This document shows, piece after piece, positions 1,609-21,287 of a DNA stretch of 35,588 nt. The DNA comes from a virus (taxonomy: Duplodnaviria > Caudoviricetes), in IMG/VR virus record IMGVR_UViG_3300038679_000136, positions 1 to 35,588 of that record; one strand, given 5' to 3'. The notes beneath the pieces were generated by a model. That model saw only the letters and a list, made by a program, of their open reading frames with translations, did no database searches and was not told the DNA's origin. Each line of letters opens with the position of its first letter. Position 1 is the stretch's first letter. The position numbers were made by a program, and so were the translations under genes.

Positions 1609-1968
1609 TTAGCTGTCGCGGCGAAGCCTGGGCCATGCGCCGCGGACACAACCCTCGTGGAAGACGATCGCGTTGCTGTTCAACGCCGACGTCAGCGCAT
1701 CCCCCGTGAGGCTGGGCAGTTCCCCGTTGCGAGTCAAGACGCACGTTCCCACATGGTCTTCGGGCAACCGCGCGGCGATGTCTTCGGCCTCGCGCAGCAT
1801 CGTGCGCCATGTCCGTCCCAACGCCTCGATGTCCGGCATGCGCCCGTCGAAGGCCAGCGTCGCCAAGTCCGTCTTGGAGTAATGGGCAGAGCGGCTGGCC
1901 TGCTCGAGGATGAAGGCAGGGCTGAGACCTGGATCCTTGCCTGACGTGGCCCACGCAAGGTATCCGAA
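1609..1968 (-). pseudogene. 3' half of host AbiEii-like nucleotidyltransferase split by the prophage
   Basis: Reads FGYLAWATSGKDPGLSPAFILEQASR...WPRLRRDS with no convincing start. It continues in frame the 5' half ending at 34709, giving a restored protein of 272 aa. Confidence 0.85.
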
Positions 1969-1972
1969 GGGC
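1969..1972 (+). repeat. Left target-site duplication GGGC
   Basis: GGGC also occurs at 34709-34712. Removing the element plus one copy restores codons TTG CAG CCC TTC GGA on the minus strand. Confidence 0.8.
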
Positions 1973-2117
1973 AGCAGGGAGACGGACGGTGTGACACACG
2001 CCGACAGACGGAGGCAAAGCGCGGCAGATCAACGGGTTACGGAGGGATAAAGGGTGGCCTCGAGGTTTGACACAGATCAGGCTGCAAAGCGCCAAAGTGC
2101 CGTAGGTTTGACACAGA
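1973..2117 (+). repeat. Left end with putative transposase-binding sites
   Basis: GACGGTGTGACACA at 1985-1998, plus an exact AGGTTTGACACAGA repeat at 2063-2076 and 2104-2117. These match the inverted right-end GACGGATTGACACAGA. Confidence 0.75.
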
Positions 2118-2151
2118 AAAGCCCCCCGCACGTCGAGCGTGCAGGGGGCTT
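2117..2151 (-). terminator. Intrinsic terminator of the leftward early operon
   Basis: 14-bp stem (2119-2132 / 2138-2151) whose single mismatch is a G-U pair only on the minus strand. It is followed by a short U run and lies 25 nt after the stop at 2176. Confidence 0.75.
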
Positions 2152-2175
2152 GCAGTTGGGATGCAGGACCAGGTC

Positions 2176-2715
2176 TCAGGCCACGTGCCGATGCGCACGG
2201 GAGTCTGCCAGCTCCGCGGCTCGGGTTCCGCGGATACGCCAGGGCGATCCGGCCGACGGAAGGTCGCATGGCCGCAAGCCAGCAGCCTTGCGCAATCGCC
2301 GTGCGTACGAGTCCGCGATTTGTACGATGATGTGCAGGTGCTCGACCGGGATGTCGTCAATGGTCGTATAGGCCGGGTGCCCGGCTTGGTGGTAGATGCC
2401 AGCCATGTAGGCATCCGTATGTCCTCGCGCTCGGAGGTAGTCCAGGTCAGCCGAGATCGCGCGGAGGACATGCCGGTGGCGACGCTCGACCGCGACGGCC
2501 CAGTACTGCACGGCAGAGAAGTCTTCGGCGAGCTTCGCGAAATGTAGCATGAGCGCGTCGTAGTCCTCGGTGCAGAGAACGTCGGATACGCTGTGACAGC
2601 CTACTATGGCCTGACCCATTTCAAACTTGCGCCACACTTCGCGGTCCCCGATCCCAGACCGCGAATAGGCTTTGCCGACGAGGCGGAAGAAGGCGACTCT
2701 TTGCATGGTGGTCAT
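2176..2715 (-). CDS. Hypothetical phage protein (possibly GemA/gp16-like by position)
   Basis: 179 aa with GAGGAGG RBS, directly after MuB. Family assignment is weak. Confidence 0.6.
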   Translation of the reverse strand: MTTMQRVAFFRLVGKAYSRSGIGDREVWRKFEMGQAIVGCHSVSDVLCTEDYDALMLHFAKLAEDFSAVQYWAVAVERRHRHVLRAISADLDYLRARGHTDAYMAGIYHQAGHPAYTTIDDIPVEHLHIIVQIADSYARRLRKAAGLRPCDLPSAGSPWRIRGTRAAELADSRAHRHVA

Positions 2716-2718
2716 GGG

Positions 2719-3666
2719 CTAATCCTCCTCGGTGGCGGCGCCGATCAGGGTGCGGGCTTCCACGAACGCAGCCGCTTGGCTCTTGCGCCACGCGGCTGAC
2801 TCGCTGAGCCGGATCGCGATGCGCAACTGCTTGACCAGGCGACGGAGGTGCCCAGGCTGACGAGCGGTCTCCTGAGCGAGAAGACGCACTTCGGCGGGGG
2901 CGGACGGCCACATCGCGGAGAGTATCTCCGCAGATGCCGCGTCGAGCCACGCCATGTCGCGGCGGGCACCAATGTCCGCGCGCAGTCCGATGCGGCTGTG
3001 GAGTTGGTCCGAACCAGACACCTTGTCCGGGACGTCGGGGTTTCCCACCAAAGCGACCGGAACGCCTGATTGGTCCGCGAGGTCGAACAACCAGCGCAGT
3101 CCGCTGAGCGTTGCACGCTGGGCGTTGTCCACGATGATGAGTCGCTCGCTGCCGGAAAGGCGCGAGACGACGGCTTCGGAGCGGGTATCTCCACCCTTCC
3201 GCCGGCTCCATGCCCGCATGTCGAGCTGGCCGAAGATGAGCCTGATGATGGACCACGAATCGCCGCATCCCTCGCTGAGGGTGATCAGGATCGACGTATC
3301 CGAGTTGGCTGCGTAGCGTCGGCATGCGGTGGTCTTGCCGATGCCGGCCGGGCCTGTTACAAGGCCGATGTCGCAGGCGCCGCGAATCAGCTCCAACACC
3401 GTCATGGTCTCGGCGCAGCCCTGCGTCTCGATGTAGGTCTCCGCCCATGTCTGGCGGCGGGCGTCCGCCTGGATCATGTCGCGGAGCTTTGCCTCCAGGC
3501 CGGCGATGTCGCCGGTCATCGTGTTGGCGAGGTACCGGGAGATCGTGGCCTCGTTGACGCCGGCGCGTTTCGCGACGGCCGCCATGGACATGTTGCGCTC
3601 GGTCCGCCAGGCGGCGAGCTGGTCCCGCATGGACGCGGGGGCTGTGTCACCATTCTTCGGTTGCAT
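2719..3666 (-). CDS. MuB-like AAA+ transposition protein
   Basis: N-terminal HTH, Walker A GPAGIGKT, Walker B LIIVDNAQ, sensor-I LVGN and Arg finger LHSRIG. Lies immediately downstream of the transposase. Confidence 0.9.
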   Translation of the reverse strand: MQPKNGDTAPASMRDQLAAWRTERNMSMAAVAKRAGVNEATISRYLANTMTGDIAGLEAKLRDMIQADARRQTWAETYIETQGCAETMTVLELIRGACDIGLVTGPAGIGKTTACRRYAANSDTSILITLSEGCGDSWSIIRLIFGQLDMRAWSRRKGGDTRSEAVVSRLSGSERLIIVDNAQRATLSGLRWLFDLADQSGVPVALVGNPDVPDKVSGSDQLHSRIGLRADIGARRDMAWLDAASAEILSAMWPSAPAEVRLLAQETARQPGHLRRLVKQLRIAIRLSESAAWRKSQAAAFVEARTLIGAATEED

Positions 3667-5698
3667 GTGCTGTCTCCTGTCTCAGAGCCTGGCGGGATGA
3701 AGTCGCCGCCGCCAGATCGGCGATGAGATTGCGGGTGGGTTTGAGCGCAGGGGCCCGCACTCGCTTGCGCGGGGCATCTGGCGCGGAGTCGATCAGGATT
3801 TCGTTGTGGCGCATCGCGGCGAGTCGGTCGTCCGCGTCGCCGCGGTGGCGGGCGATTATAGGGGCGTCCATGGCAGCGACCATGCGGCCTTGCGCGGCCT
3901 GCATCGTGGACACTTGTAGCGTATCCAGCGGGTTGACGGACGCCCACTGCGGCGCGGCTCCAAGCACCGCGCCGTTCGAAAGTTCCACGACGATGGCCTG
4001 CTTGGTCGAGTAGGGAGTGACGAACAGGCCGTATTCTCGCCCGGCGCACAGTGCCATGCTCGATCCATCCGGGCAGACTACGGCGCCGGCGAAACGGTGG
4101 GTGCCCGGCCCGAGGAAGCGGTCGTCGAATGAGATCAGGTGGTTGTCCTGCACGCGGACGCGTTTGACCCGGTCCATGCCCAGGATGTCCACTATGCCCC
4201 ACGCCGGCATGCGAACCAGGTTCTGCTGTCCGGATTCCCACGCCTCGATCGGGGACCATCGGCGCATGCGGGTCAGGCCGGGCGTGCGCATGCAGGTGAT
4301 CGCCAGATCCTGCGACGCGGGCTTCAGCATGGCGATCTCGCGCGCCGGCCGCCAGTCCCCGCGGCCGTCGACGGACCACTCGGCCTCGAGCCATTCGTTG
4401 GCCTCCCATCCTTCAATGTTGTGGTCCGTGCGCGATCCGATCGCGTGGACGATCTCGGCGTACACCCTGCCGTAGCCGCTCCAGGACAAGCCGCCGAGCC
4501 AAAGCCGTTCGCGCAAGTTGGCGGGCATCCGCTCCCATGCCTTGAGCATCGCCGACGCGTAGCGCTCCAGTCCGTCGAGCTGCTCCGGGCGGTCGCCGCC
4601 GCGCGAGATCCCGCCCGTCTGGGCCGGGAGCATGCCGCTCTCGTAGTGGTGGATGCGGTGCGAGCCCTCCATCAGCGCCTTGGTCTTGAAGTTGCCCTTG
4701 CCCGCCCCGTTGAACAGGCCCTTGTGGACGGCGGCGCCGAGGATGTCCGAATCGCGGTACGTGATCGCCCCGCCGGTGAGGCGGTCGATGATCTTGCGGA
4801 GCGGATCGCGGATCGCGGCCGTGCCGTGCTCGACGCACCAGACGCAGCCGTCGCGGTGCCACCCGATGTCCGTGAGCACGTGGCACGCGAGCCAAAGCAT
4901 CTCGACTTCCTTCAGGCTGTCGCGCGTGCCGTCCGCGCGAGGCACCTGGGGACGCAAGCCGTAGGCGATCTTGTGGGTGGACGCGACGTCGTTGCACGCG
5001 AACTCCTGGGCGCGCACCAGCACCTTGGCCAGGTCCGGGGCGACAACCTCGTCGTCGTGCGTCATGTCGTCGAACTGGTAGATCTGCCCAGGGCGCAGCC
5101 CCGCCCGCGTCGTGTACACTCCGGGGACGTGCGCGCGCGCGGCCTTCGTCCCGATCCGCACGGCCTTCTCCTCGTACTTCGTCAACGCCGCGTAGCGCTG
5201 GAAGTTCCTGTAGCTCATGCCGGGCGGCACCCACATGGACGGGCATTGCGCAGGCGGCCGCTCGCCCTTGTAGCAGGCGCGCCAGATGTCGCGCCAGTCG
5301 CCGACGCCCTCGAAGCGGACGCCGCGCCGGATGTCCAAAACGAGCTGCTTCCACGCGGGCTTGTTGGCGCGCTGGTGCCGGCCGCAGTACGTCTTGTAAA
5401 TGCTGTCCATCGTGGCGCGCGGGCAGGCCGGCTTGTCCGGCGCGCGGGCCTTGTCGGCGAGGGACATCAGCGTCCGCCCCCCGCGCACCCACTTGTAGTA
5501 CTGGGTGCGCAGGGTGTGCTTGCTGTGCCCGCGCATGTGCCCGTACCGGGCGCACACGTCCCGGCAGGCGTCCGAGACGTTGCGCTGCCCGTCGATCCAC
5601 TGCATGATGTCGTAGCGGTCCATGGTGTCCGCGCGCACGGCGGCGGGGAGCTTGGCGAACGCGGAGTCGGCTGTCGGGTGGGTGCGGTCCGGGAGCAT
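3647..5698 (-). CDS. MuA-like transposase (683 aa)
   Basis: Start ATG 5698 after AGGAAAGG. Motifs LRPGQIYQFDD, VEHGTAA and GKGNFKTKALME. Size and coupling to MuB match Mu A-B. Confidence 0.85.
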   Translation of the reverse strand: MLPDRTHPTADSAFAKLPAAVRADTMDRYDIMQWIDGQRNVSDACRDVCARYGHMRGHSKHTLRTQYYKWVRGGRTLMSLADKARAPDKPACPRATMDSIYKTYCGRHQRANKPAWKQLVLDIRRGVRFEGVGDWRDIWRACYKGERPPAQCPSMWVPPGMSYRNFQRYAALTKYEEKAVRIGTKAARAHVPGVYTTRAGLRPGQIYQFDDMTHDDEVVAPDLAKVLVRAQEFACNDVASTHKIAYGLRPQVPRADGTRDSLKEVEMLWLACHVLTDIGWHRDGCVWCVEHGTAAIRDPLRKIIDRLTGGAITYRDSDILGAAVHKGLFNGAGKGNFKTKALMEGSHRIHHYESGMLPAQTGGISRGGDRPEQLDGLERYASAMLKAWERMPANLRERLWLGGLSWSGYGRVYAEIVHAIGSRTDHNIEGWEANEWLEAEWSVDGRGDWRPAREIAMLKPASQDLAITCMRTPGLTRMRRWSPIEAWESGQQNLVRMPAWGIVDILGMDRVKRVRVQDNHLISFDDRFLGPGTHRFAGAVVCPDGSSMALCAGREYGLFVTPYSTKQAIVVELSNGAVLGAAPQWASVNPLDTLQVSTMQAAQGRMVAAMDAPIIARHRGDADDRLAAMRHNEILIDSAPDAPRKRVRAPALKPTRNLIADLAAATSSRQALRQETAHATEEW

Positions 5699-5724
5699 GG
5701 CGGGTCCTTTCCTCGCGGCGGGCG

Positions 5725-6507
5725 CTACGCGTTGTTGTTCCTGGAGGCCTTGCCCGCGGCCTTGCCGGCGTTCTTGATGAACGTCAGCATCTGGTCGGCG
5801 ACGGCGCGCAGGTTGCTCGCCACCGTCTCCAGCGTCTCGGTGTCGAGCAGGCGCCAGTCGGGCCGCGCGATCCCGTGGTCGGCCACCTGCCCGGCCAGGT
5901 TCTGCCACCGTCCGGCGGCTGCGAGACGGCGCTCGGCGACGGTCGGTCCGCGCTTCCCGCCGTCGTCCTCCGCCTTCGGCTTTTTCTCCGCGTCCTTCTC
6001 CGCCAGCCATTCGGCCGCGTCCGCCGCGGGCTGCGGGAGCGCGTCCCCGTCGCCGCCCGGCCCGAGCAGCCGCCCGGAGCGCTGGCCCACCTGCGAGAGC
6101 GGCAGCCACACCTCGTGCGCCATCAGCGCCTTGGCGTCCAAAAACTGGCGGGCTCCGGCGATGTAGCGTTGCAGCGTGCGCGGGTGGCGCCCGGGGATCA
6201 TGCGCAGGGCCTCGGGCATGAACTCGCCGTGGGCGCAGAGCTCCTTGACGACGATCAGGCCCACGCCGGCCCTGAGCTCGAAGAAGCGACCCAGCTCGGC
6301 GTTGTCGATGTCCTGGCGGACCTGGACGAGGATGCCGTCCGACCGCTCGCGCGAGGCCGCCGCGAGCGCGGCCGGCGAGCCGGCCGGCATCACCTCGGGC
6401 TCGTGCGGCGCCCCGGACTCCGCCGCCTTCCGGTACGCTTCCTTGAGGGTGGGGGCCGCGGGGGACAATTTCTTGGCGAGTGCCTTCGTCTGCTTCTGCT
6501 TCTGCAT
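5725..6507 (-). CDS. DUF3102-like phage protein
   Basis: AGVGLIVVKELCAHGEF...RTLQRYI matches the G..L...K....HGeF...rtaqry pattern. Located just upstream of the transposase. Confidence 0.65.
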   Translation of the reverse strand: MQKQKQTKALAKKLSPAAPTLKEAYRKAAESGAPHEPEVMPAGSPAALAAASRERSDGILVQVRQDIDNAELGRFFELRAGVGLIVVKELCAHGEFMPEALRMIPGRHPRTLQRYIAGARQFLDAKALMAHEVWLPLSQVGQRSGRLLGPGGDGDALPQPAADAAEWLAEKDAEKKPKAEDDGGKRGPTVAERRLAAAGRWQNLAGQVADHGIARPDWRLLDTETLETVASNLRAVADQMLTFIKNAGKAAGKASRNNNA

Positions 6508-6528
6508 GGTGCGTGTTCCTTGTGCGGC

Positions 6529-7176
6529 CTACAGGCCGGCGGGTTGGTGTGCGAATTTGCGGGACGCCGCGTCGCGGCGGTAGAAGCGGAGGTAGTCCTT
6601 GGTGGACTGCACGCGGATGGAGTCGCGGATCGCGCGCATCGCCTCCAGCCAGCGGGGGTCCTGGATGGACCACCGCAAAAGGCCGAGGATGCGCCCGACG
6701 CTCAGGTGCCCCTGGGCGTCCGTGCGGAAGGCGTCGTCGGCGATCACCTTGAGCTCGTCCCTCGCGCCGTCCGTCCAGTCCGCGAGGCACGCGAAGATCA
6801 GCTTCTTGGCGGCGTGGATCTCGTCGCTGAACGCGATCGACTTCTCGACCGCGCGCTGGATGCGCAGCGAGCCGTCGTAGCTGGAGAGCGTGAGGTTGCC
6901 CTCCTGCCCTCCCATCGCGACGCCGTACTGCTCGGCCACCAGGGCGAGGTGCGCGTCGATGTCCGCGTCCGCGCATTGGCGGAAGGCCATGCAAGCCGCC
7001 TGCATGGCCTCGAACTTGGCGAACAGCTCGCGCACGAGCTTGTCGCGTTGGAGGTCCGCCGGCTTGACCAGCGCGAGCGGCACGAGCCGCCCGGCGCCGT
7101 CGCGCAAATATCCCGCGGGCGCGGCGCCTTCAAGCGCGGCGCCGGATGCAGGGGCGTAGTGGGCCTGTGTTTCCAT
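6529..7176 (-). CDS. DUF3164 family protein
   Basis: YLRDGAGRLVPLALVKPADLQRD, GNLTLSSYDG and KDYLRFYRR, typical of Mu-like early regions. Confidence 0.85.
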   Translation of the reverse strand: METQAHYAPASGAALEGAAPAGYLRDGAGRLVPLALVKPADLQRDKLVRELFAKFEAMQAACMAFRQCADADIDAHLALVAEQYGVAMGGQEGNLTLSSYDGSLRIQRAVEKSIAFSDEIHAAKKLIFACLADWTDGARDELKVIADDAFRTDAQGHLSVGRILGLLRWSIQDPRWLEAMRAIRDSIRVQSTKDYLRFYRRDAASRKFAHQPAGL

Positions 7177-7204
7177 GGGTCTCTGTCTCCGTTGTGGTGG
7201 CGGC

Positions 7205-7546
7205 TCAGCCGCCGATGTTGGTGAAAACCTTGCACGCCTCCTCCAGCGAGAGGAGGCTCTTGCGCGCCGGGTCGAAGGGCCGGTCGGCCCGGACGATGAC
7301 GCGCCAGTGGGTGCGGTCGGACTCCGCCGCCGCCCCGACGCGGCGGGCCAGCAGCGTCCCGGATTCGACCATGTTGCGGACGGTGCGCTCGCAGCACCCG
7401 AGCGCGGCGGCCGCCCGGGCGGGCGTGGCGGTCGCGGCGCCGGCCGGGACGCCGGCCAGCGCCGCCTCGACGGCGGAGCGGTCCACCGCGGCCTCCGCGC
7501 CCCAGGGCATCAGCGTCTGTCGCGCGTCGTCGAGTTCCCGCGCCAC
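7205..7546 (-). CDS. Excisionase/MerR-type HTH DNA-binding protein
   Basis: AAAALGCCERTVRNMVESGTL. GTG start after GGAGG. Confidence 0.7.
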   Translation of the reverse strand: MARELDDARQTLMPWGAEAAVDRSAVEAALAGVPAGAATATPARAAAALGCCERTVRNMVESGTLLARRVGAAAESDRTHWRVIVRADRPFDPARKSLLSLEEACKVFTNIGG

Positions 7547-7550
7547 GGCC

Positions 7551-7730
7551 CTACCTCCCCAGCGCCGCGGCCAGCAGGCAGCGCAGCCCCAGCGCCGCGA
7601 GGCGCAGCCTGCGTCCGGGTCCGCGGCGGCGCAGCCTGCGGCGCTCCGCCACGCGGCGGTCCTCCGCGGCGCAGGCCGCGGGCGACATCGGGAAGTTCGC
7701 GTAGTCCAGGTTCAAGGTTTCCGTCCGCAT
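7551..7730 (-). CDS. Small basic hypothetical protein
   Basis: GGAG RBS then ATG 7730. Fills the operon gap. Confidence 0.45.
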   Translation of the reverse strand: MRTETLNLDYANFPMSPAACAAEDRRVAERRRLRRRGPGRRLRLAALGLRCLLAAALGR

Positions 7731-7753
7731 GGGGTTGTTCTCCAAGGTGACAC

Positions 7754-7783
7754 TTCATCCTTCATACTTCAGCCTTCATCCTT
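7754..7783 (+). repeat. Heptamer tandem repeat, family A (TTCATCC/TTCAGCC)
   Basis: TTCATCC TTCATAC TTCAGCC TTCATCC, intergenic. Confidence 0.8.
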
Positions 7784-7787
7784 GCCG

Positions 7788-8381
7788 CTAGTAGCTCGCG
7801 CAGCAGGCGCCGTACTGCCGCCAAAAAACGACCGCGCACGCGGCCAGCACGATCCACGGCGAGAGGATCGCCAGCACCCCGAGCACCGTCAGGAACGTCC
7901 CGCCGGCGCGGTGCTCGCCGGGAAAGTTCGCCGTCAGCGCCCGCCCCATGCCGCGCGGTCCGTTCAGGACCCAAACCGCGCAGCCGTCTCGGCGCAAGGT
8001 ATGGCCGTCGGCATCCTTGCGCCGGATCTCGTGCTTGGCGTTCAGGGCGGTGAACCGCCCGCTGATGTTGTTCGGGTGCGTCTCCATCCGCGCGGCGCAC
8101 TCCTTGACCGTGACGCCGAAAGCCCCGGACCGGCCGATCTCCGCCAACACGCGGGCCTCCTGCAGTGCGAGTGCCCCGGAATCGACCAGCGCGTCGAACG
8201 CCGCCTCGCTCTCCGCGTTGCCTCCGTGGCGTTCGCCGCAGAAGTCTAGCGCAGCCATGGGGGCGCGGGCGTCCCGCCCGCCGTACGTCGAGGGTTCGTT
8301 CGCCAGCGTGGCCACGCCTCGCGCTCCGAAAAGCGGGAGGTCGGAGAAGCCGATCCTCGGTTCGCGGTACTTCGTTCCCAT
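7788..8381 (-). CDS. Winged-HTH protein with C-terminal membrane anchor
   Basis: GVTVKECAARMETHPNNISGRFTAL followed by hydrophobic FLTVLGVLAILSPWIVLAACAVVFW. AGGAGG RBS. Confidence 0.65.
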   Translation of the reverse strand: MGTKYREPRIGFSDLPLFGARGVATLANEPSTYGGRDARAPMAALDFCGERHGGNAESEAAFDALVDSGALALQEARVLAEIGRSGAFGVTVKECAARMETHPNNISGRFTALNAKHEIRRKDADGHTLRRDGCAVWVLNGPRGMGRALTANFPGEHRAGGTFLTVLGVLAILSPWIVLAACAVVFWRQYGACCASY

Positions 8382-8392
8382 GGCGCGTCCTC

Positions 8393-8659
8393 CTAGAGTT
8401 CCACGCACACGTCGGCCTCGGGGAGGTCGAACGTCCCGGCGACGGCGACCGTCGCCGAATCCTCCGGGGAGAGGTAGCCCACCGCGCGGTCCGGCCCGGC
8501 GCCCGCGACGACCCACGGCGTGGAGGGCGCGCTGCCCGGCGCTCTTCCGTGGAGGACGCCGCGGACGACCGCCAGCGGCATGCCGTCGCGCTTGTAGTGG
8601 ATGGCCGCGCGCGTCCGCTCCGGCAGCGCGTCGAGCCTGGCGATCTGTCCCTGCGTCAT
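8393..8659 (-). CDS. Hypothetical protein (88 aa)
   Basis: ATGA overlap with the upstream gene and GGGAGG RBS. Confidence 0.6.
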   Translation of the reverse strand: MTQGQIARLDALPERTRAAIHYKRDGMPLAVVRGVLHGRAPGSAPSTPWVVAGAGPDRAVGYLSPEDSATVAVAGTFDLPEADVCVEL

Positions 8660-8910
8660 GCCCTCCCCCCTTCCTGCCGGTGTGTGGCGGAGGCGACGCG
8701 GCCTAGTTGCTCGTCCTCGAATATTCTCCCGACCACCTCGAATGTGAGCGGGTGCATGGACGTGTAAATCATGTCGTGGCGGTCCGTCGGGTAGGTGCAG
8801 AATGCCAGGCCGTAGAGGTTCATCCCCGTCACAACCACAGTGCGGCCGTACCACGGGTCCTGCTCGTCGACCACTGAGACGATGTCTTTCTTCTTGAAGC
8901 TCGTCGTCAT
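8656..8910 (-). CDS. Hypothetical protein (84 aa, SH3/KOW-like start)
   Basis: MTTSFKKKDIVSVV...GRTVVV. GGAGG RBS and ATGA overlaps on both sides. Confidence 0.6.
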   Translation of the reverse strand: MTTSFKKKDIVSVVDEQDPWYGRTVVVTGMNLYGLAFCTYPTDRHDMIYTSMHPLTFEVVGRIFEDEQLGRVASATHRQEGGRA

Positions 8911-9539
8911 GCCGTCCTCCCTTCGCGTCCCTTCGCGCCCTTCGCGGTTCGGTCTTTTTCCGCGTCCACGTCTCCGTCTCCGCGCCGGTACTCCGCCATG
9001 CCGCGCAGCCAGGCCGTCTGCAGTTCGGGCTCCGTACCGCCCTGGTACGGGCAGCCGCCCGCGTCCTCTCCCCGCGCGGCGGCGATCGCGCCCGCCGCGA
9101 ACGCGTACAGGTTCGGAGGGCTGTCGGGGTCCGCCATCCGTTCCGCCCGCAGCGCCCGCGCGCCGGTGCAGACCGTGCGCTCGCAGGTGCCGCAGAGGAA
9201 GTCGCACTCCAGGTGCGCGCCCCGCGCCTCCGGGGCGGCTGTGCAGACCTTGCGCACGTACTCCTGGTACGCGGCCCGAGCCTCCGGGCACGCATGGGGT
9301 TCGCCCGGCGCGACCGCCCCGCCGCAGCGCTGGCACCGGCCCTCGTCGGCGCCCTCGGGCACCAGCACCGCCGCGATGCCGGTGGAGTCCCGGTACCACT
9401 GCGCCAGGGCGATGGCTACGGCCTGCGGGTACGAGTCCCCGAAATCCTCCAGCAGCGTCCACGCGGGCTCGCCCGAGTCCAGCACGCAGTCGAACGTCAC
9501 CCACCCCTCGCGCTGCCGTATCCTCGACCGCTTGCTCAT
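8907..9539 (-). CDS. Cys-rich protein with C-terminal Rmf-like motif
   Basis: CQRC...HAC and CDFLCGTC clusters, then AFAAGAIAAARGEDAGGCPY...AWLRG. Confidence 0.6.
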   Translation of the reverse strand: MSKRSRIRQREGWVTFDCVLDSGEPAWTLLEDFGDSYPQAVAIALAQWYRDSTGIAAVLVPEGADEGRCQRCGGAVAPGEPHACPEARAAYQEYVRKVCTAAPEARGAHLECDFLCGTCERTVCTGARALRAERMADPDSPPNLYAFAAGAIAAARGEDAGGCPYQGGTEPELQTAWLRGMAEYRRGDGDVDAEKDRTAKGAKGREGRTA

Positions 9540-9961
9540 GCCGGCACCGCCTTCCCCGCCGCCAGAGCCTTCAGCGCTCCGTCGGTCGCCCTGGCCATCG
9601 CCCAGCCGACGCGGAAATCTTCGCTTGCGGTCCGCTCGGCCATGGCCTCCCAGGCCTCGACGGTCGCGTACGCAGGCCGCGCGGCCAATGCCGCCGCCAT
9701 GCCGTAGCGCGAGTTCCATGCCCGCGCGGCGGAGTCGCGCGTGTCGGCGATCGCCATCGCGATTGCTGGACACCCCGTGCCCCGTTGCCTGTGGGCTTTG
9801 GAGTCGTGCGAGCATTCCGCCACCCAGTACTCCTCATCGATGTACGGCGGATCGGCGTCCACGCGCCGCATCGTCCCCTTCTCTCCGCAGAACGGGCACT
9901 GCAGCAAGCTCACGCGCGTCCCCTCTTTTGCCTTCATCCTTCTGCCTTCATCCTTTCTCAT
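9536..9961 (-). CDS. Lar family restriction-alleviation-like protein 1
   Basis: LLQCPFCG...C...C...AARAWNSR. Start inferred from an ATGA overlap. Confidence 0.7.
   Translation of the reverse strand: MRKDEGRRMKAKEGTRVSLLQCPFCGEKGTMRRVDADPPYIDEEYWVAECSHDSKAHRQRGTGCPAIAMAIADTRDSAARAWNSRYGMAAALAARPAYATVEAWEAMAERTASEDFRVGWAMARATDGALKALAAGKAVPA
9926..9955 (+). repeat. Heptamer tandem repeat, family A
   Basis: TTTTGCC TTCATCC TTCTGCC TTCATCC at the 5' end of the Lar-1 gene. Confidence 0.8.
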
Positions 9962-10152
9962 GCTTCCACCTCGATCCCCTGCTCCGCCATCCGCCGCGCC
10001 AGGCGGCGCGAGGGCTGCTCGCCCGTCACGTGGCGGCGCACCTGCGTGTCGCTCACGCCCAGGACGCGCGCCGCCGCCCGCAGCCCCGTCCACTTCTCCG
10101 TCATCCGCCGCCGGATCACCGGCGCGGCGGCCGCGCTTCGTTTCGTTCCCAT
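9958..10152 (-). CDS. Small Cro/Ner-like HTH regulator
   Basis: GLRAAARVLGVSDTQVRRHVTGEQPSRRL, near the start of the early operon. Confidence 0.7.
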   Translation of the reverse strand: MGTKRSAAAAPVIRRRMTEKWTGLRAAARVLGVSDTQVRRHVTGEQPSRRLARRMAEQGIEVEA

Positions 10153-10208
10153 CGTGTTCACCTGCCTTCTTGTTTGTGGTAAGCTCCCCCGCGAAGGAGA
10201 GACAGCCC

Positions 10209-10661
10209 ATGACCGTCGAGGAAATCCTCAAGTCCCGCTCCTGCGGGCCGCGCTTCACGAGCCTGCTTGCGGAGGTTGGCTCATGCGCCTACCCGGGCAA
10301 GTGGCCCGCATCGCGAACGCGCATCCTGGCTCGTCTTCGAACGATAGACGGGCAAACACAGGGCACCCTAGACACGTTTGCCACGGAACCCCATGCGCTT
10401 CCGTCCATTCCCTCATGGGGCGCACCCGAGCGGTACATGCTGAAACATCGGCTTCTGAACGCTCTAGATATTCTCTCGCGCCTTGCATACTCATCACCTT
10501 CCGAGGGACTGCTCCGCACGACGGGAGGCCTGAAGGAGGAAGACGACTGGCTGTTCCGGGGACTGTGGTACGCGTTCGGATCGATCTGGATGGAGCGCCT
10601 TGCGGAGAGCCTGTCCCGCGGCCTGCCCCAGCCCCAGCCGCCTCCATCGCCTCCGGCCTGA
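10209..10661 (+). CDS. Hypothetical protein (150 aa) oriented against the early operon
   Basis: AAGGAG RBS plus ATG, protein-like composition, and visibly more A/T than neighbours. Confidence 0.6.
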   Translation: MTVEEILKSRSCGPRFTSLLAEVGSCAYPGKWPASRTRILARLRTIDGQTQGTLDTFATEPHALPSIPSWGAPERYMLKHRLLNALDILSRLAYSSPSEGLLRTTGGLKEEDDWLFRGLWYAFGSIWMERLAESLSRGLPQPQPPPSPPA

Positions 10662-10905
10662 CGGACGCGCGCCGGTTCCATTCGCGCACCGCGCCCTCGA
10701 CGGTTTTCGAGGCCGACGCCGACGCGCCGCACGCCCGGCACCGGCAAACCGCCGGAGTCGGATTCATGGCCGCCATCACGTCGGCGCTCCCGCCGCAGAA
10801 CGGGCAGGCCAGCATCGACGCCAAGAGCGCCGTCTCGCGCGCCAACTCGGCGCGTGTCGCTGGCAGAGGTCCCCTGTCCACCGCCGTATTCGCTTTCTTC
10901 TTCAT
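10255..10905 (-). CDS. Lar family restriction-alleviation-like protein 2 (alternative start 10974)
   Basis: LACPFCGG...CRACGA...AVREWNRR. The tail beyond about 10660 is antisense to another ORF and doubtful. Confidence 0.65.
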   Translation of the reverse strand: MKKKANTAVDRGPLPATRAELARETALLASMLACPFCGGSADVMAAMNPTPAVCRCRACGASASASKTVEGAVREWNRRASVRPEAMEAAGAGAGRGTGSPQGAPSRSIRTRTTVPGTASRLPPSGLPSCGAVPRKVMSMQGAREYLERSEADVSACTARVRPMREWTEAHGVPWQTCLGCPVFARLSFEDEPGCAFAMRATCPGRRMSQPPQAGS

Positions 10906-11003
10906 TTCCTGTCTCCCTTGCAGGACGATGGTCCCCTGCGGGACGACGCCGCACTCAAAAGCTACCTTCTTCATTCCCTGTCTCCTTCGCTTGTGGTATG
11001 TTG

Positions 11004-11016
11004 CAACCACTGGTTG
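11004..11016. promoter_or_regulatory. Putative repressor/Ner operator
   Basis: Perfect CAACCA-C-TGGTTG dyad just downstream of the early promoter. Confidence 0.5.
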
Positions 11017-11030
11017 TTTCAACGGCGGGC

Positions 11031-11059
11031 ATATTAGTAAGCGGAGGTTGCTGTGTCAA
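11031..11059 (-). promoter_or_regulatory. Sigma70-type early promoter
   Basis: Minus strand TTGACA (11059-11054), 17-nt spacer, TAATAT (11036-11031), pointing into the early operon. Confidence 0.75.
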
Positions 11060-11532
11060 CGGAAAAAGCAAGTGGAAGTGATTTTTTCCGAAGGCTAGAT
11101 GAACTGCGCAAGTTGCACGGGGAATCATTGACCGACGTGGCTGCGGTATGCGGCGTGTCGGCGCCGGCTGTTCATGGGTGGCGCAAGGGAGGGATGCCCA
11201 AGCTGGATAAGCTGCGCTTACTTGCCGACCACTACCGTTGCGATGTCGGCTATTTTCTTGGTCATCCGGGCATTAGAACTGTGCCCGCAGACGAGCCGGG
11301 CGTAGTGGTTTCAGGTTCTAACTCCGTCGTGCCTGTATCTTCGCCATCGCCCGTGGCCGAGTCGCCACCCTGCCCCGGATGCAGGACGCGCGACGGCGAG
11401 ATCGCGTACTTGCGCGGAGTCGTCGCGGACCAGGCCGCCGCGCTCCGGGCCGTCACGGCCGGCGTCTGCCGCCACCCGCAGGGCGCCGAGGGGCCTACCG
11501 CCGGTGGCGGCGCCTTGCAGAAAACTGGATGA
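11053..11532 (+). CDS. XRE-family prophage repressor, no S24 peptidase domain seen
   Basis: RLDELRKLHGESLTDVAAVCGVSAPAVHGWRKGGMPKLDKLRLLADHY. GGAGG then GTG. Divergent from the early operon. Confidence 0.85.
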   Translation: MSTEKASGSDFFRRLDELRKLHGESLTDVAAVCGVSAPAVHGWRKGGMPKLDKLRLLADHYRCDVGYFLGHPGIRTVPADEPGVVVSGSNSVVPVSSPSPVAESPPCPGCRTRDGEIAYLRGVVADQAAALRAVTAGVCRHPQGAEGPTAGGGALQKTG

Positions 11533-11579
11533 CCGTTCGGCGCTAGTCGACAACAACCGCAGCCAAAGGCAAACCAACT

Positions 11580-12233
11580 ATGCAAAAGTCGCATCTACTG
11601 GTCGCTGTCGTCGCGTCGGTCCTATGGTCAGAAGCGGCGCTCGCCGACCTGTTTACTCTCACGAATGGGGTGGTCGTGGCAGGCACGGTCGTATCTGGAA
11701 TGGTGGCTCAAGTGGCGATTCGCGATGGCGACGGAACGATACGAACTATTCCGGTCTCCGCGTTTAATCCGCCAGACAGAGAGCGTCTGCCGTGGGACGC
11801 GGCCGGCATTTATGTCGCGTACGCGGAAGTGCGAGACGTGGCAAAAACGGCGATGGCGGAGAACGAGAAGCTCCTGTCTGAAATGACACTGTTGAAGGGC
11901 CATATGGAGAAGCTGTCCGCTGCCACGGAACGGCTGACGGCGGCGATGGCGGAACCCAAGCAGGGATCTGCGACGGCTTCCGCTCGGGAAGTCTCTCGCA
12001 GCGCAGGCTACGTCAACGTCGCATGGAAAGCCGAGATCCCGAACCAAGAACCAGAAGCGATCAAACGTGACGTGGTCTTTCGGTTCTTGGACGAAGACGG
12101 GTTCGTCGTGAAGTCAGAACGAGAATATGACGTCGTTTTGAGTCCGGGAGTAACCAAGGTCGCTCAAGTGACGATCATCAAGGCTGACGTCTACGATCAA
12201 GTGAAGACGTGCGACGTTCTGGTCGAGGAATAG
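11580..12233 (+). CDS. Exported protein (signal peptide, coiled coil, beta-rich C-terminus), lysogenic cargo
   Basis: MQKSHLLVAVVASVLWSEAALA|D. Lies between the repressor and a terminator, with lower GC by eye. Confidence 0.7.
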   Translation: MQKSHLLVAVVASVLWSEAALADLFTLTNGVVVAGTVVSGMVAQVAIRDGDGTIRTIPVSAFNPPDRERLPWDAAGIYVAYAEVRDVAKTAMAENEKLLSEMTLLKGHMEKLSAATERLTAAMAEPKQGSATASAREVSRSAGYVNVAWKAEIPNQEPEAIKRDVVFRFLDEDGFVVKSEREYDVVLSPGVTKVAQVTIIKADVYDQVKTCDVLVEE

Positions 12234-12268
12234 CGACCCATTACTGCTTGATAAAAACACTCCACTTC

Positions 12269-12302
12269 GCCCCCTTGCAGGCCACCTGCAAGGGGGCTTT
12301 TT
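12269..12302 (+). terminator. Intrinsic terminator of the repressor operon
   Basis: Perfect 13-bp stem GCCCCCTTGCAGG-CCA-CCTGCAAGGGGGC followed by TTTTT. Confidence 0.85.
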
Positions 12303-12494
12303 CGCGCCGTGGCAGAGTCCGCACCGTGACGCGCGCGGCAGGGTCCGCACGCTGCCGCCGCGGCACGGTTCGCACTCCGACGCCGTGGTTGGGTGCCCGG
12401 GCCGACGCCGCGGCAGTGTCCGCGCGCCGCCCCGGAATCCCGCGTTTTCCTTCGGAAAACAGCGCGTGGCGAGGTCCCGACCCTGCCCAAAATA

Positions 12495-12531
12495 CGTTGT
12501 GACAACGCAAATGCGACAGTCTGTCGCATTT
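12495..12531. promoter_or_regulatory. Two adjacent perfect dyads upstream of the late operon
   Basis: CGTTGT-G-ACAACG (12495-12507) and AAATGCGACAG-T-CTGTCGCATTT (12509-12531). Confidence 0.5.
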
Positions 12532-12836
12532 CCGTGCGCGCGCGCGCGCGCGAGGCTGGCCGCTTTTCCGACCCCCGGAAAATAGTCCGCACGCACGGCA
12601 CGCAGGCGCGCGCGCAGGGATGGAAAGGAGGCAAGATGGGCGGCATCGCAACGCAGCATTGCAACGCGGCACGCCCCACGCCCATGAGAGCCCTACCCCA
12701 CACCCCACACACTCGCTCGACATCGGCCCGGACGGGCCACGCCGGGCCGCGCGGTCCTGTCTCCCGCGCGCATCCCGCCGGTTCGCGCCGGTCCCTGCCC
12801 GGGGAGGACGCCATCGGCGCCTCGGGATTCCTTTTC

Positions 12837-12871
12837 GATTTCGGATCGCGGATTGCAGATCGCAGATTGGG
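12837..12871 (-). repeat. Heptamer tandem repeat, family B (reverse orientation)
   Basis: GATTTCG GATCGCG GATTGCA GATCGCA GATTGGG, just before the first late gene. Confidence 0.75.
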
Positions 12872-12880
12872 GAACGCCGC

Positions 12881-13249
12881 ATGAACTACACGCCTCCCGT
12901 GGAAATCGCCGCGTTCCTGGCCTGCGTCCTGTTCCTGGTCGCGTTGGCGAACCAGGTCGCGACCCTGTGGTACCGGATCAAGGGCAAGCCCACGCCCGCC
13001 GAAATGGCGTCGGCCTCCGCCACGCTCTCGGAGCGGATCGGGCGGATCGAGACCTGCATGGGCGCGTGCCAGTCGGACCACGGGCGGCGGCTGTCGAACC
13101 TGGAGTCGCACCAGGAGAACGCCCGCAAGCTGATCGCCGACGAGGTCGACAAGGTCTTCAACCGCGTCAACAACGTGGCCGACGAGTGCGCCAACATCCG
13201 CGGCGAGCTCACGGGCATCAACCGCCAACTCGAAAGGCTCGGCAAATGA
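12881..13249 (+). CDS. Membrane-anchored coiled-coil protein (Mu gp25/DUF2730-like position)
   Basis: N-terminal TM segment then heptad-like helix. Precedes the gp26/gp27-like genes. Confidence 0.65.
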   Translation: MNYTPPVEIAAFLACVLFLVALANQVATLWYRIKGKPTPAEMASASATLSERIGRIETCMGACQSDHGRRLSNLESHQENARKLIADEVDKVFNRVNNVADECANIRGELTGINRQLERLGK

Positions 13250-13494
13250 GCGACATCGACTCCGACCTTTCCCAGGCCATCGTCACCGTGCTCAAGGAAT
13301 GCGCCGGCAAGCCCCTGGCCGTCCGCCCGCTGACGACCTACGCGAACGGGTACAGCCGCGCGCTGGCCTCCGTCGCGGACGTGCAGCGCCACGTCGACGA
13401 CCTGGAGCGCCGCGGCTACCTGCGGCGCGTGGCCGACCGCTTCAACCCGTCCAACCTCTCCTGGACCCTCACCGAAGCCGGCCAAGCCCTTTAG
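13246..13494 (+). CDS. Small winged-helix protein (Mu gp26-like)
   Basis: DVQRHVDDLERRGYL...WTLTEAG. ATGA overlap and synteny. Confidence 0.65.
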   Translation: MSDIDSDLSQAIVTVLKECAGKPLAVRPLTTYANGYSRALASVADVQRHVDDLERRGYLRRVADRFNPSNLSWTLTEAGQAL

Positions 13495-13523
13495 CCTTTA
13501 GCCTTCAGCCTTCATCCTTTCCC
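13490..13523 (+). repeat. Heptamer tandem repeat, family A
   Basis: TTTAGCC TTTAGCC TTCAGCC TTCATCC TTTCCC fills the whole stop-to-ATG gap. Confidence 0.8.
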
Positions 13524-14090
13524 ATGAACCAGAAACCCTCCCCCCTCGCGGCCCTGGCCGCGATCACCCCCGAGCAGGCGGACGAGCTCTTCGACCGCCT
13601 GCGCACCGCGCCGTACTACGCGGCCGTGGCGTGGGTGGCGGAGACGTGGGGGATGAGCGTCTCCATTTCGGGACTGCGCCGCTGGTGGCTGCGCGAGAGC
13701 TCGGCCCGGGCGAGGGCCGACCTGCGCGCCGCGATCCGCGCCTCCGAGCAGTTCGACAAGGACCTCGACGCCCGGGCGCTCGACCAGCGCGCGGCCCACG
13801 CGATGCGCGCCAAGTTCTGGCAGGCGGTGACCTCCGGCGACAAGAAGGCCACGCTCGACTTCGGCGCGGCGGTCCTGGACTACAACGCGGACGGCCGCGA
13901 CGACGAGAAGCTCCAGCGCGTGCTGGCCGCGGAGCGGGAACGCGACGCCGCCAAGGCCGAGGCGTCCGCGCTGCGGGCCCGCGTCTCCGAGCTGGAGGCC
14001 GCGCTGGCCGCGGCGGGCCGCGACTCCGCCGCGGACCCCAAGGCCGTCATGGCCGAGGTGGACCGCATCCTGGGGAGGAAGACGGCATGA
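13524..14090 (+). CDS. Terminase small subunit-like (Mu gp27/DUF3486-like)
   Basis: N-terminal HTH-like WVAETWGMSVSISGLRRW, helical, directly before TerL. Confidence 0.65.
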   Translation: MNQKPSPLAALAAITPEQADELFDRLRTAPYYAAVAWVAETWGMSVSISGLRRWWLRESSARARADLRAAIRASEQFDKDLDARALDQRAAHAMRAKFWQAVTSGDKKATLDFGAAVLDYNADGRDDEKLQRVLAAERERDAAKAEASALRARVSELEAALAAAGRDSAADPKAVMAEVDRILGRKTA

Positions 14091-15535
14091 GCGCCACCGC
14101 CACAGCCGCGGCAGCCGCGGGCTCCTACTTCCTCCCGTACCAGGACCGCTGGATCGCCGACGAGGCGCGGCTCAAGATCGCGGAGAAGTCCCGCCGCGTG
14201 GGCTTCACCTACGCGAGCAGCTACCGCATGTTCAAGAAGTGCATGGAGCGCGGCGACGGGTACATCCAATGGGTGTCGAGCCGCGACCAGTTCACCGCCC
14301 AGGAGCTGATCCGGGACTACGTCGCCCGCTGGTGCCGCCTGGCCAACGTCGCCGCCAAGGGGATGCACGGCGACAACGTGCAGGTCTTCGACACCGCGCG
14401 GGACATCCGCGCCTTCGTGTGCCAGTTCCCGAACGGCGCGCGCATCGTCTCCCTGGCCAGCACGCCGGAAGTCTTCGCGGGCAAGGGCGGCGACGTGTTC
14501 CTCGACGAGGTGGACCTGCACAAGGATTCCGGGCGCCTGGTGGACATGGCGCTGCCCTGCGTCACCTGGGGCGGGCAGCTCGAAATGGTCAGCGCCTACC
14601 GCGTGGACGGCTCCGCCAAGACGCCCTTCGCGCAGATGGTCGCCGAGGCCAAGAACGGCAACAAGCAGGGCGCGTCCCTGCACCGCGTGACGATCCACGA
14701 CGCGGTGGCCGAAGGCATCGTCGAAAAGATAAACGAGGCCAGCGGGCAAACGATGACGCGCGAGGCGTTCGTCGTCCGCATGCGCGGGCTCTGCCGCACG
14801 CTGGCCGCGTGGATGAGCCAGTACGAGTGCGTCCCCCAGGACGCCGGCGGGCGGCTGCTGCCCTTCGCCGAGATCGCCGCCTGCGAGATGGACGCCGTGG
14901 AACTCGCCGCGCTGCTCGCGGCCAACCCGAAGGCGCCGCGCTTCGCGGGCTACGACGTCGCCCGGCGCGTCCACGCCTGCGCCTGGCACGAGTACGCGCA
15001 GGTCGGCGTCACGCTCTTCCTCGCCCGGCGCGAAGTCTTCCGCGACATGAAGTTCGACGACCAGGAGAACTGGATCCGCTCCCGGCTGGAGGACAAGGCC
15101 CAGCCCCGGATCGCCCGCATGGCCATCGACGCGACGGGCCTCGGCATGCACATGGCCGAACGGCTTTCCGGGGACTACCCCGGGCGGGTCGACGCCGTGA
15201 ACCTCGAAAGCCACCGCCGCCACGAGCTCTGCCTGATGCTGGCCGACCGCGTGCAGCGCCGCCAGGTCGCGTTCCCGCCGGACGACCAGCTCCGCGCGGA
15301 CCTCAACGCGCCGCTCAAGACCGTCGCCGCCAACGGGGCGCTGCGGATCGAGGTGCCCAGCTTCTCCTCGGCGGACGGCGAGGTCTCGCACGCCGACGAG
15401 TTCATGGCCGCCGTGCTCGCGCTGAGCGCGGCGGATTCCGCCCCCGCCGGCGCGCCCCCCACCGTCGCCCGCTGCGCCTCCGTCCGCCGCCACGCGGCGC
15501 GCGAGGCCCGCCGCAACCGGAGCATGGCAGCATGA
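14087..15535 (+). CDS. terL: Terminase large subunit (Mu gp28-like)
   Basis: FLPYQ, EKSRRVGFT, VFLDE, GYDVAR, IDATGLG and SHAD motifs. Confidence 0.93.
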   Translation: MSATATAAAAAGSYFLPYQDRWIADEARLKIAEKSRRVGFTYASSYRMFKKCMERGDGYIQWVSSRDQFTAQELIRDYVARWCRLANVAAKGMHGDNVQVFDTARDIRAFVCQFPNGARIVSLASTPEVFAGKGGDVFLDEVDLHKDSGRLVDMALPCVTWGGQLEMVSAYRVDGSAKTPFAQMVAEAKNGNKQGASLHRVTIHDAVAEGIVEKINEASGQTMTREAFVVRMRGLCRTLAAWMSQYECVPQDAGGRLLPFAEIAACEMDAVELAALLAANPKAPRFAGYDVARRVHACAWHEYAQVGVTLFLARREVFRDMKFDDQENWIRSRLEDKAQPRIARMAIDATGLGMHMAERLSGDYPGRVDAVNLESHRRHELCLMLADRVQRRQVAFPPDDQLRADLNAPLKTVAANGALRIEVPSFSSADGEVSHADEFMAAVLALSAADSAPAGAPPTVARCASVRRHAAREARRNRSMAA

Positions 15536-17124
15536 GCGCCCCCGCCCACAACAACCGCATGCTCCGCAACGCCAACACCTGGCGGCAGCAGTACGACGCG
15601 CTCCGCTGGCTCGACGTGCCGCGCGCCGTGCGCCTCCTGGAGCAGGAGCGCCGCGGCATCCACGCCGAGACGCAGTACACCTACGACCTCGTGGACAGCG
15701 TGGACCCCGACATGCTGGCCCTCATCCAGCTCCGCCTCGCCGCGATCAAGCGGCTCAAGTGGCGCGTCGCCTGCGCGGCGGAGGACACCGCCGGGTTCGA
15801 CAAGGTCCTCGCCGACGAGCAGGAGGAGGCGCTCCGCGCGCTCTACGACCGCATGCGGAACCTCGTCGCCGCCACGGCCGACCTCGCGCTCGCCACCTTC
15901 CGCGGCTACTCGGTCCTGCAGATCCGGCGCGACTCCGCGGGCGACCCTGTCTCGATCTGCCCGCTCGACCGCTGGCTGTTCGCCAGGGACGGCATGCGCG
16001 GCGACTGGTGGTGGAACCCCACCGCGCAGACGCTCGCCGGCCGGTCCCTGCCCGAGGCCGACCGCCTCGGCGGACCCGAGCTGCCGCTCGCGGACTTCGT
16101 GCTGCGCGAGGTGCCGTTCGCCGTGGACCGCGTGGCGCTCCTGGCCAGCGTCCGCAGCTCGACCGTCGAGAAGGACTGGGACGCCTGGTGCGAGATGTAC
16201 GGGCTCCATCCCTCCATCGTCACCGAGCCGCCCAACGCCAAGCCGGAGGACCGCCCCTCCTACGACGCCGCCGCGCGCGCCTTCAGCGACGGGCAGGGCG
16301 GGACGCTCCCCAACGGCGCCGCCGTCGTCTTCCCCAACTCCGTCACGGTGGACGCCCCGTTCGAGAAGCGCGCGGAGTACCTCACGCGGAAGAAGGTGCT
16401 GGCCGGCACCAGCGGCATGCTGACGATGCTGGCCGAGTCCGGCTCCGGAACGCTCGCGGGCGGCGCGCACCAGGACACGTTCGACTCGCTGGCCGAGGCC
16501 GAGGCCGCGGAGATCTCCGAGCTGCTCCAGCGCTCGATCGACGCGCCTTTCCTCACCGCCCGCTTCGCCGGGCGCCCGGTCCTCGCCTGGTTCGAGCTGC
16601 AGCCCCACCGCAAGAAGGACCCCGACAAGGTGGCCGACCGCGTCGCCAAGGTAGCCGCGCACTACGACTTCGACGCCGACGAGCTGACCGAGGAGCTCGG
16701 CCTCACCGTCACGCCGAAGGCGGTTGTCCCCGGGGGCGCGGGCGTCCCGCCCGCTCCCTCCCCGTTGGGCCTGGCCTTCGCCAACGGCGCCACGCTGCGC
16801 GCCGCCGTCAACAGCCGCGCGACCGCGCCCGCTCCGGCGGACGTCCCGGATCCCGACGACTTGGAGGGCGCGGCGGTCGAAGCGCTGGCCGAGGCCCGGG
16901 CCGAGGGACTCGCGCCCGTCGTCGAGCGGCTCCTGGACGCGCTGTCCAAGACCGATCCCGAGTCGCTCCGCAAAAGCCTCGCCTCGCTGCTGGCCGACCT
17001 GCCCCGCCTCGCGGAAGCGGCCGGCGCCGGCGCTGAGGCGGACGCCGAGCTCGTGGAGCGCATCCTCTCCGACGCCGTCGGGGCCGGCCACGCCGACGCC
17101 GCCAAGAAGGGAGCCACGCCGTGA
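15532..17124 (+). CDS. Portal protein (Mu gp29/DUF935)
   Basis: ATFRGYSVLQI, DWDAWCEMYG and GSGTLAGGAHQD. Follows TerL with an ATGA overlap. Confidence 0.88.
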   Translation: MSAPAHNNRMLRNANTWRQQYDALRWLDVPRAVRLLEQERRGIHAETQYTYDLVDSVDPDMLALIQLRLAAIKRLKWRVACAAEDTAGFDKVLADEQEEALRALYDRMRNLVAATADLALATFRGYSVLQIRRDSAGDPVSICPLDRWLFARDGMRGDWWWNPTAQTLAGRSLPEADRLGGPELPLADFVLREVPFAVDRVALLASVRSSTVEKDWDAWCEMYGLHPSIVTEPPNAKPEDRPSYDAAARAFSDGQGGTLPNGAAVVFPNSVTVDAPFEKRAEYLTRKKVLAGTSGMLTMLAESGSGTLAGGAHQDTFDSLAEAEAAEISELLQRSIDAPFLTARFAGRPVLAWFELQPHRKKDPDKVADRVAKVAAHYDFDADELTEELGLTVTPKAVVPGGAGVPPAPSPLGLAFANGATLRAAVNSRATAPAPADVPDPDDLEGAAVEALAEARAEGLAPVVERLLDALSKTDPESLRKSLASLLADLPRLAEAAGAGAEADAELVERILSDAVGAGHADAAKKGATP

Positions 17125-18074: not shown

Positions 18075-18090
18075 CCCCATCCGCTAGCGC

Positions 18091-18117
18091 AGTCCCGCAA
18101 TCCCGCAATCCCGCAAT
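18091..18117 (+). repeat. Octamer variant of family B repeat
   Basis: AGTCCCGC AATCCCGC AATCCCGC AAT, intergenic. Confidence 0.7.
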
Positions 18118-18128
18118 AGGAAGTTCCC

Positions 18129-18473: not shown

Positions 18474-18521
18474 CCGCCCCGCGCGGCCCCACCGACAACA
18501 CCGCCAGAAAGGCACGCATCC

Positions 18522-19965: not shown

Positions 19966-19967
19966 GC

Positions 19968-21239: not shown

Positions 21240-21240
21240 C

Positions 21241-21275: not shown

Positions 21276-21287
21276 GGAGTAATCCCC

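Follow-up and report, generated by a model that had tools for sequence, protein, structure and literature searches.

The window, a 35,588-nucleotide stretch of viral DNA (IMG/VR record IMGVR_UViG_3300038679_000136), harbors a transposable, Mu-like prophage which reads 5'-AG...CT-3' and is bounded by a 4-bp direct repeat. Both properties recur at independent insertions of related elements, among which right ends starting with A are restricted to a single transposase clade. It is considered probable that the transposase of this prophage prefers, frees and joins a 3'-T. The element is a transposable phage of the proposed Saltoviridae and lies outside the Mu and B3 types as these are defined; its new trait is the 3'-T end, while the 4-bp repeat has precedent in Porphyromonas gingivalis phages, in the Escherichia coli prophage Sp18 and in TG-ended relatives.

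The record represents a provirus with host DNA on both flanks. The left junction reads CCGAA[GGGC]AGCAGGG, position 1973 being the first base of the element, and the right junction reads GTGATACT[GGGC]TGCAAC, position 34708 being the last. The overlap between the flanks is exactly four bases, with no extension possible on either side and no slide, which bears out the AG...CT ends and 4-bp duplication proposed in an earlier note on this DNA. The boundary features are as follows.

1973..34708, no strand assigned: whole transposable prophage, 32,736 bp, delimited by its junctions and gene content
1969..1972, + strand: left copy of the target duplication, GGGC, from the sequence
34709..34712, + strand: right copy of the target duplication, GGGC, from the sequence
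1973..1998, + strand: left terminus, 5'-AG..., with TGACACA at 1992-1998 as putative first transposase-binding site
2068..2115, + strand: two extra left-end TGACACA copies (2068-2074 and 2109-2115), putative L2/L3-like sites; similar repeats occur at the left ends of relatives
34664..34708, - strand: right terminus, 5'-AGTATCACG..., with TGACACA at 34689-34683 and a degenerate second copy near 34670-34664
2119..2151, - strand: terminator-like hairpin at the end of the leftward early operon, from a consensus scan only (0.4 expected in shuffles)
34709..35167, - strand: 5' half of the host gene split by the prophage, an AbiEii-family nucleotidyltransferase (PF08843, E 2e-6; homologs up to 93% identical)
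1609..1971, - strand: 3' half of the same AbiEii-family gene, from its translation and intact homologs

When aligned in inverted register, the termini agree at 17 of the first 26 positions, a level reached by 52 of 200,000 random window pairs, and in both of them base 20 is the first base of TGACACA, in agreement with the identical motif offsets described previously. The degenerate right-end copy is located 39 bases from the right end, and the right ends of relatives carry two motif copies spaced 21 to 22 bases apart. A generic inverted-repeat search of the element returned GC-rich chance pairs only.

The halves of the interrupted host gene translate as ...HCHASLQ and PFGYLAWA..., and the junction motif was readable in 77 of 120 intact AbiEii-family homologs, the other 43 having been missed by the search pattern. 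All 77 display Q-x-x-G with no extra residue (QPLG in 35 and QPFG in 31), and the empty site CCGAA-GGGC-TGCAAC deduced in the earlier note, in which one GGGC is kept, is therefore correct at the protein level; an intact allele of the interrupted gene was not found at the DNA level. The empty site alone does not fix the division of the four bases between target and element.

In the survey of relatives, 83 loci were fetched and 20 genomes or records were searched, with ends set 19 bases outside the first motif; the locus searches employed a 21-row transposase alignment, a 60-row alignment being too diverse. Tabulation of ends and duplications for prophages with homologous transposases revealed that 10 of the 12 relatives for which both ends were placed carry a 4-bp repeat at the position set by the motif, where 0.004 to 0.008 would be expected by chance per site (P about 2e-10, even with nine offset choices per element). 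These relatives are listed below with the 5' dinucleotides of their left and right ends.

G001, clade: repeat CCGC; AA and AT
L041+G017, clade: repeat TGCT; CG and AG
G019, clade: repeat GGCC; AG and AG
G002, clade: repeat AGGC; AG and AG
G003, clade: no repeat; AG and AG
G016, clade: no repeat; AA and AA
G005, outside the clade: repeat CTTC; AC and TG
G006, outside the clade: repeat ACGT; GC and TG
G007, outside the clade: repeat CTTT; GG and TG
G011:C16, outside the clade: repeat CCGT; TG and TG
G013 (from Rubritalea spongiae), outside the clade: repeat GTCT; TG and TG, at offset 20, chosen after looking
G015, outside the clade: repeat CCGG; TG and TG

The repeats of G019 and G002 were prospective findings: each was read at one end before the opposite end, on a separate contig, was located and proved to carry it; in both cases the host frame stays open across the rejoined site and the ends read AG...CT. 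The two records which make up L041+G017 show no difference over 14,388 bases, and their rejoined site gives a 200-aa open frame. With the window counted, the repeat is absent from two of the seven two-ended clade members, G003 and G016, which may be contigs joining different insertions; the flanks of G016 span only 25 to 29 bases, from which a mixed-site assembly is suggested. The insertion sites are unrelated genes, of AbiEii-family, GlmS-like, ThiF-like and other types, the names GlmS-like and ThiF-like being read from translations. The gene split in G019 (L006 and L176) is read as that of glucosamine-6-phosphate synthase (GlmS), which is normally essential.

The two-ended count leaves out G008, G010, G011:C8, G014 and G018, whose ends were not placed, and the left end only was placed for G009, G012, G020, G024, G025, L034, L037, L040 and L051. 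A search for right ends in G024, G025 and G004 yielded no credible end; one-mismatch matches were comparable to the reversed-pattern control in G024 and exceeded it in G025 and G004, none of these being exact. Scanning viral contigs with the left-end pattern returned 43 matches, one of which, an element already in the set, is accompanied by transposition genes. The right-end scans recovered the G017 junction (L122/L123), the window's own junction (L124) and L169; L124 was not counted, being 100% identical to the window junction over 1,520 bases, nor was L169, which starts AT, its record G021 carrying no transposase. In G021 (L169 to L172), a 42-kb viral contig with no transposase match contains a clade-type right end together with approximately 0.9 kb of related DNA.

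In a transposase tree (quick search, 26 rows, no bootstrap, midpoint root), a 14-row clade with an SH-aLRT value of 100 contains the window together with all right ends on the tree that start with A; L037, which the tree does not include, was placed in the clade by identity. Left ends of the clade start with AG in eight cases, AA in three, AC in one and CG in one (n = 13), and right ends with AG in five, AT in one and AA in one (n = 7), so that base 1 is A, corresponding to a 3'-T, at 12/13 left and 7/7 right ends. The earlier note had described the ends as non-canonical AG...CT termini: they are indeed distinct from TG...CA, but the conserved trait is the terminal 5'-A (3'-T) and not the AG dinucleotide, as AA, AT and AC also occur. 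Its proposal of a distinct lineage of transposable phages is upheld by the recurrence of AG...CT with a 4-bp repeat in G019 and G002 and by the carriers forming one transposase clade. The single CG start (G004/L041) lies inside a palindrome which spans the junction and has perhaps been altered; at the left junction of L041/L010, the host-phage boundary is crossed by a perfect 7-bp inverted repeat, and the odd start may reflect a later template-switch change.

Outside the clade, all six two-ended elements possess a TG right end at the same or an adjacent offset, and the nine left ends start with TG (four), AC (two), GC, GG and AG (one each). Since TGTA at outgroup right ends occupies the same offset as AGTAT at most clade ends, the simplest history is that A-starting ends were derived from TG ends through a T-to-A change at base 1 (TGTAT to AGTAT at the right end), the tree being rooted by midpoint only. 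The mixed outgroup left ends, in turn, argue that different bases were already tolerated at position 1 before the clade arose.

A further feature of the outgroup is that seven of nine left ends follow, at a distance of 13 to 25 bases, an intact tRNA gene (Ala, Ser in three cases, Val, Arg and Pro) in the same orientation, in a raw count with no weighting for kinship, and that another left end follows a duplicated 3' fragment of a tRNA. The loci concerned are L011, L012, L013, L022, L025, L029 and L051 (and L016), with the MuB-side end nearest the tRNA. No tRNA was detected in the clade loci scanned, several of which have flanks of fewer than 60 bases and among which the G002 left locus was not included, and no TniQ-like gene was recognized among the MuB-like proteins scanned in the tRNA-adjacent loci. 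Targeting directed by tRNA genes in the outgroup is possible.

The predicted structure of the window transposase (pLDDT 85.6) has the Mu transpososome (4fcy) as its top fold match, followed by TnsB, and profile searches match MuA. The profile alignment begins at MuA residue 93, with no counterpart matched to residues 1 to 92, and places D210 on MuA D269, the MuA catalytic triad being taken from the part of PMC3362531 that was available. Two other acids are invariant: E290, at a strand end within an EHG motif, and E344, in the helix which follows. D, E and E are found in 213/213 aligned homologs, with nine of 222 rows gapped, and the catalytic triad, as read from this alignment rather than from superposition on a structure, is probably D210/E290/E344 (D-E-E). 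G013 had seemed to carry D in place of the second acid, owing to a spurious pattern match; it has E in the alignment. No Pfam family was assigned to this protein, and tblastn against 50,697 phage records gave no match at E values up to 1; its profile recovers 772 clusters (50% identity) at E values up to 1e-30.

Seven alignment columns separate 11 clade from nine outgroup transposases, two of which are situated in the E344 helix (P 0.005 for 2 of 7, for a region picked post hoc). R348 is present in 11/11 clade and 0/9 outgroup proteins, and Y352 in 10/11 and 0/9, respectively. A link between these residues and the terminal base is hypothesized, shared descent being a confounder. In HIV integrase, the catalytic residue E152 is carried by the alpha-4 helix, which we infer to be equivalent to the E344 helix. 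K156 and K159 of alpha-4 are reported to contact the viral DNA ends in the accessible part of PMC3012736.

By analogy with Mu, the transposase is presumed to bind the repeated TGACACA sites; it would then nick 19 bases outside the first TGACACA, producing a 3'-T-OH instead of Mu's 3'-A, and both ends would be joined to target bonds four bases apart. The enzyme is predicted to favor T as the 3' base exposed by cleavage and to tolerate variation at base 2, and the clade-specific R348 and Y352, on the helix with the third catalytic acid, may set the T preference. The 4-bp stagger would be older than the clade and family-wide, and MuB-assisted replicative transposition is assumed, again on the Mu model. 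A broader and more tentative proposal, which we put forward at somewhat less than even confidence, is that, in one clade of phages of Kiritimatiellia/Lentisphaera, a MuA-type D-E-E transposase was adapted to recognize and process a 3'-T at both termini. This would represent a natural switch of a nucleotide that is otherwise A in the Mu/Tn7/retroviral branch, set by a few catalytic-helix residues (R348 and Y352), and the oriented insertion 13 to 25 bases behind tRNA genes seen in sister lineages would have been given up.

A base preference would be superfluous if the enzyme simply cut at a set spacing from the site it binds, the terminal A having been fixed by descent and being functionless. 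Such a ruler, which we regard as unlikely, is kept alive by the mixed outgroup left ends, which vary in sequence and yet are accompanied by clean 4-bp repeats where both ends could be read; the variability of base 2 in the clade, the one clade left end starting CG and an almost constant motif offset (19, once 20) point the same way. It sits poorly with the retention of A at base 1 of both ends among clade proteins which are 44 to 58% identical to that of the window and despite the divergence of left-end bases 2 to 8, and with TG at all six outgroup right ends; together, these observations indicate selection on base 1.

The remaining alternatives concern the position of the ends themselves. Were the element to start at C1972, it would have either CAG...CTG ends with a 2-bp GG repeat, an alternative raised in the earlier note, or an asymmetric end with a 3-bp repeat. 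The contigs of public runs X5 and X6 begin at 1972 (C) rather than 1973, a mild point against the 1973 boundary which a C bias of the targets can explain, and the G019 junction is compatible with CAG...CTG. However, although the base just outside the clade left ends is C in seven of 13 cases, it is T in three, G in two and A in one; the base following the right end is A (G002 and G003) or T (G017) rather than G; and the overlap is exactly four in the window and in seven of the 10 repeat-bearing relatives, those of G002, G007 and G011:C16 being able to slide by three bases. The CAG...CTG reading is accordingly rejected, and a start at C1972 in either form is highly improbable. Hardly more credible is an element which inserted with TG...CA ends later mutated in place, or whose true ends are the internal TGACACA (1992) and TGTGTCA (34683-34689), which do form a TG...CA pair within the element, with captured flanks outside them. 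A T-to-A change shared by both ends of many separate insertions cannot date from after integration, and the 19 bases flanking the motif on its outer side are kept across independent insertions, with the repeat lying beyond them. Moreover, high-depth contigs in other runs reach 1972 and include these outer bases, and no repeat abuts the internal motif in the 12 two-ended relatives. A transposase acting on AG...CT ends, with a preference for the 3'-T, remains the preferred reading.

A terminal 3'-CA is typical of the Mu/Tn7/IS21/retroviral branch and not of all DDE elements. Mu, whose record begins TGTATT, has three sites per end and is nicked at the terminal CA with a 5-bp stagger, according to the portion of PMC3145075 available. 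The window prophage resembles Escherichia phage Mu in the MuA-like fold and end-binding domains of its transposase, a MuB-like ATPase, a Mu-like I protease, repeated sites at both ends (their binding being presumed here) and insertion inside ordinary genes. It differs in its 3'-CT and 4-bp repeat, in the predicted second acid E in place of MuA D336, in the unmatched MuA N terminus, in a divergent two-arm layout and in its size (32.7 kb). In the available text of PMC8705779, Mu and B3 types are defined by TG...CA ends, duplications of 5 bp (Mu) or 6 bp (B3) and genomes of 36 to 39 kb; the window element has AG...CT ends, 4 bp and 32,736 bp. As in the B3 type defined there, its divergent arms surround regulatory genes. 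The Leptospira prophages described in the same text have TA-TA ends with a 6-bp repeat, likewise non-canonical and confined to one clade; they differ, as does B3, in the 6-bp repeat and in a 3'-A which is kept, and perhaps in a transposase of the B3/Tn552 type.

The 4-bp duplication, which the earlier note had offered as part of the departure from known phages, is confirmed but not novel, as it is found in TG-ended relatives, in Sp18 and, in the part of PMC10367356 available, in P. gingivalis transposable phages (phage006-015; 33 to 35 kb). The latter share 4-bp bounding repeats and non-TG...CA ends with the window prophage but have TA...TA ends, in which the 3' base is still A, and a Bacteroidota host (PMC10367356). 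Sp18 of E. coli O157:H7 Sakai (L121, 1471-40225) was measured to possess a 4-bp repeat (TAAA), TG...TA ends, TGATACC at base 20 of both ends and paired right-end motifs 22 bases apart, the annotated prophage feature (1472-40230) being offset from these ends. It therefore shares the end geometry of the window prophage, namely, motif position and repeat length, and differs in retaining a 3'-A and a Mu-type gene order; comparison of the transposases by hhalign gave a probability of 2.5%, and no relation between them was detected beyond a weak N-terminal signal. Burkholderia phage KS10, like the window prophage, is without TG...CA termini, and no flanking repeat was identified for it in the available text of PMC2628397. 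As far as these partial sources extend, the comparators with known end sequences (Mu, B3, Leptospira, P. gingivalis and Sp18) all have a 3'-A. The accessible portions of PMC5977238, PMC10132054, PMC2669165, PMC7761591 and PMC6776037 give no repeat length for prophage ends, and the literature searched, which was mostly open access with subscription journals largely outside it, yielded no description of 3'-T ends or this lineage.

TG-ended and AG-ended relatives constitute matched natural pairs whose transposases can be aligned and whose 4-bp stagger is identical, which renders end and residue swaps feasible. Prophage-end searches based on TG...CA termini and 5- to 6-bp scars would miss this group.

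The genes of the prophage are arranged in two arms which, based on ORF strands, point away from a central repressor gene, and the MuB/TnpB-type ATPase gene adjoins that of the transposase. A tailed-phage head module is present, comprising terminase, portal, protease, major head protein and adaptor.

2176..2715, - strand: conserved gene with no Pfam or PHROG family, the last before the left end in the clade (tblastn)
2719..3666, - strand: MuB-like HTH and AAA ATPase, 315 aa (AAA_22, E 3e-17; phrog_296 DNA transposition protein, E 2e-46)
3647..5698, - strand: MuA-like transposase, 683 aa (phrog_310, E 1e-7; best fold match Mu transpososome 4fcy, E 2e-12)
6529..7176, - strand: DUF3164 protein (profile search)
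11053..11532, + strand: HTH repressor-like gene between the arms (profile searches)
14090..15535, + strand: terminase large subunit (profile search)
15532..17124, + strand: portal protein (profile search)
17121..18074, + strand: Mu-like I protease/scaffold (profile searches)
18522..19454, + strand: major head protein (profile search)
19968..20411, + strand: head-tail adaptor (profile search)

No annotated tail family was matched among the late-arm ORFs scanned beyond 20.4 kb, no Mor/C or GemA marker genes were detected among the ORFs scanned (small ORFs being left out), and no Rfam family was found in seven loci scanned. Late-arm genes in the 21288-34619 interval are common to relatives, and the ORF at 27506-28738 has a weak C-terminal match to a PBECR2 nuclease-like domain, under the Pfam cut-off. 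The interval between MuB and the left end holds one gene in the window (2176-3666 region) and in G001; outgroup loci encode longer MuB proteins and several genes before the left end, some of which are DNA methyltransferase-like by translation.

Named homologs and most related genomes belong to Kiritimatiellia, Lentisphaeraceae and Verrucomicrobiota, and the host of the window prophage is, on this taxonomic basis, likely to be of such a type. In public runs X5 to X7, the phage part is covered at a depth of 20 to 299 and the host stretch 1434-1969 is without coverage, a pattern consistent with active copies at other sites, contig depth not being equal to copy number. The left host flank also carries, at 108-1361 on the - strand, a gene of the AICARFT/IMPCHase family, whose 417-aa product covers profile positions 76 to 311 only.
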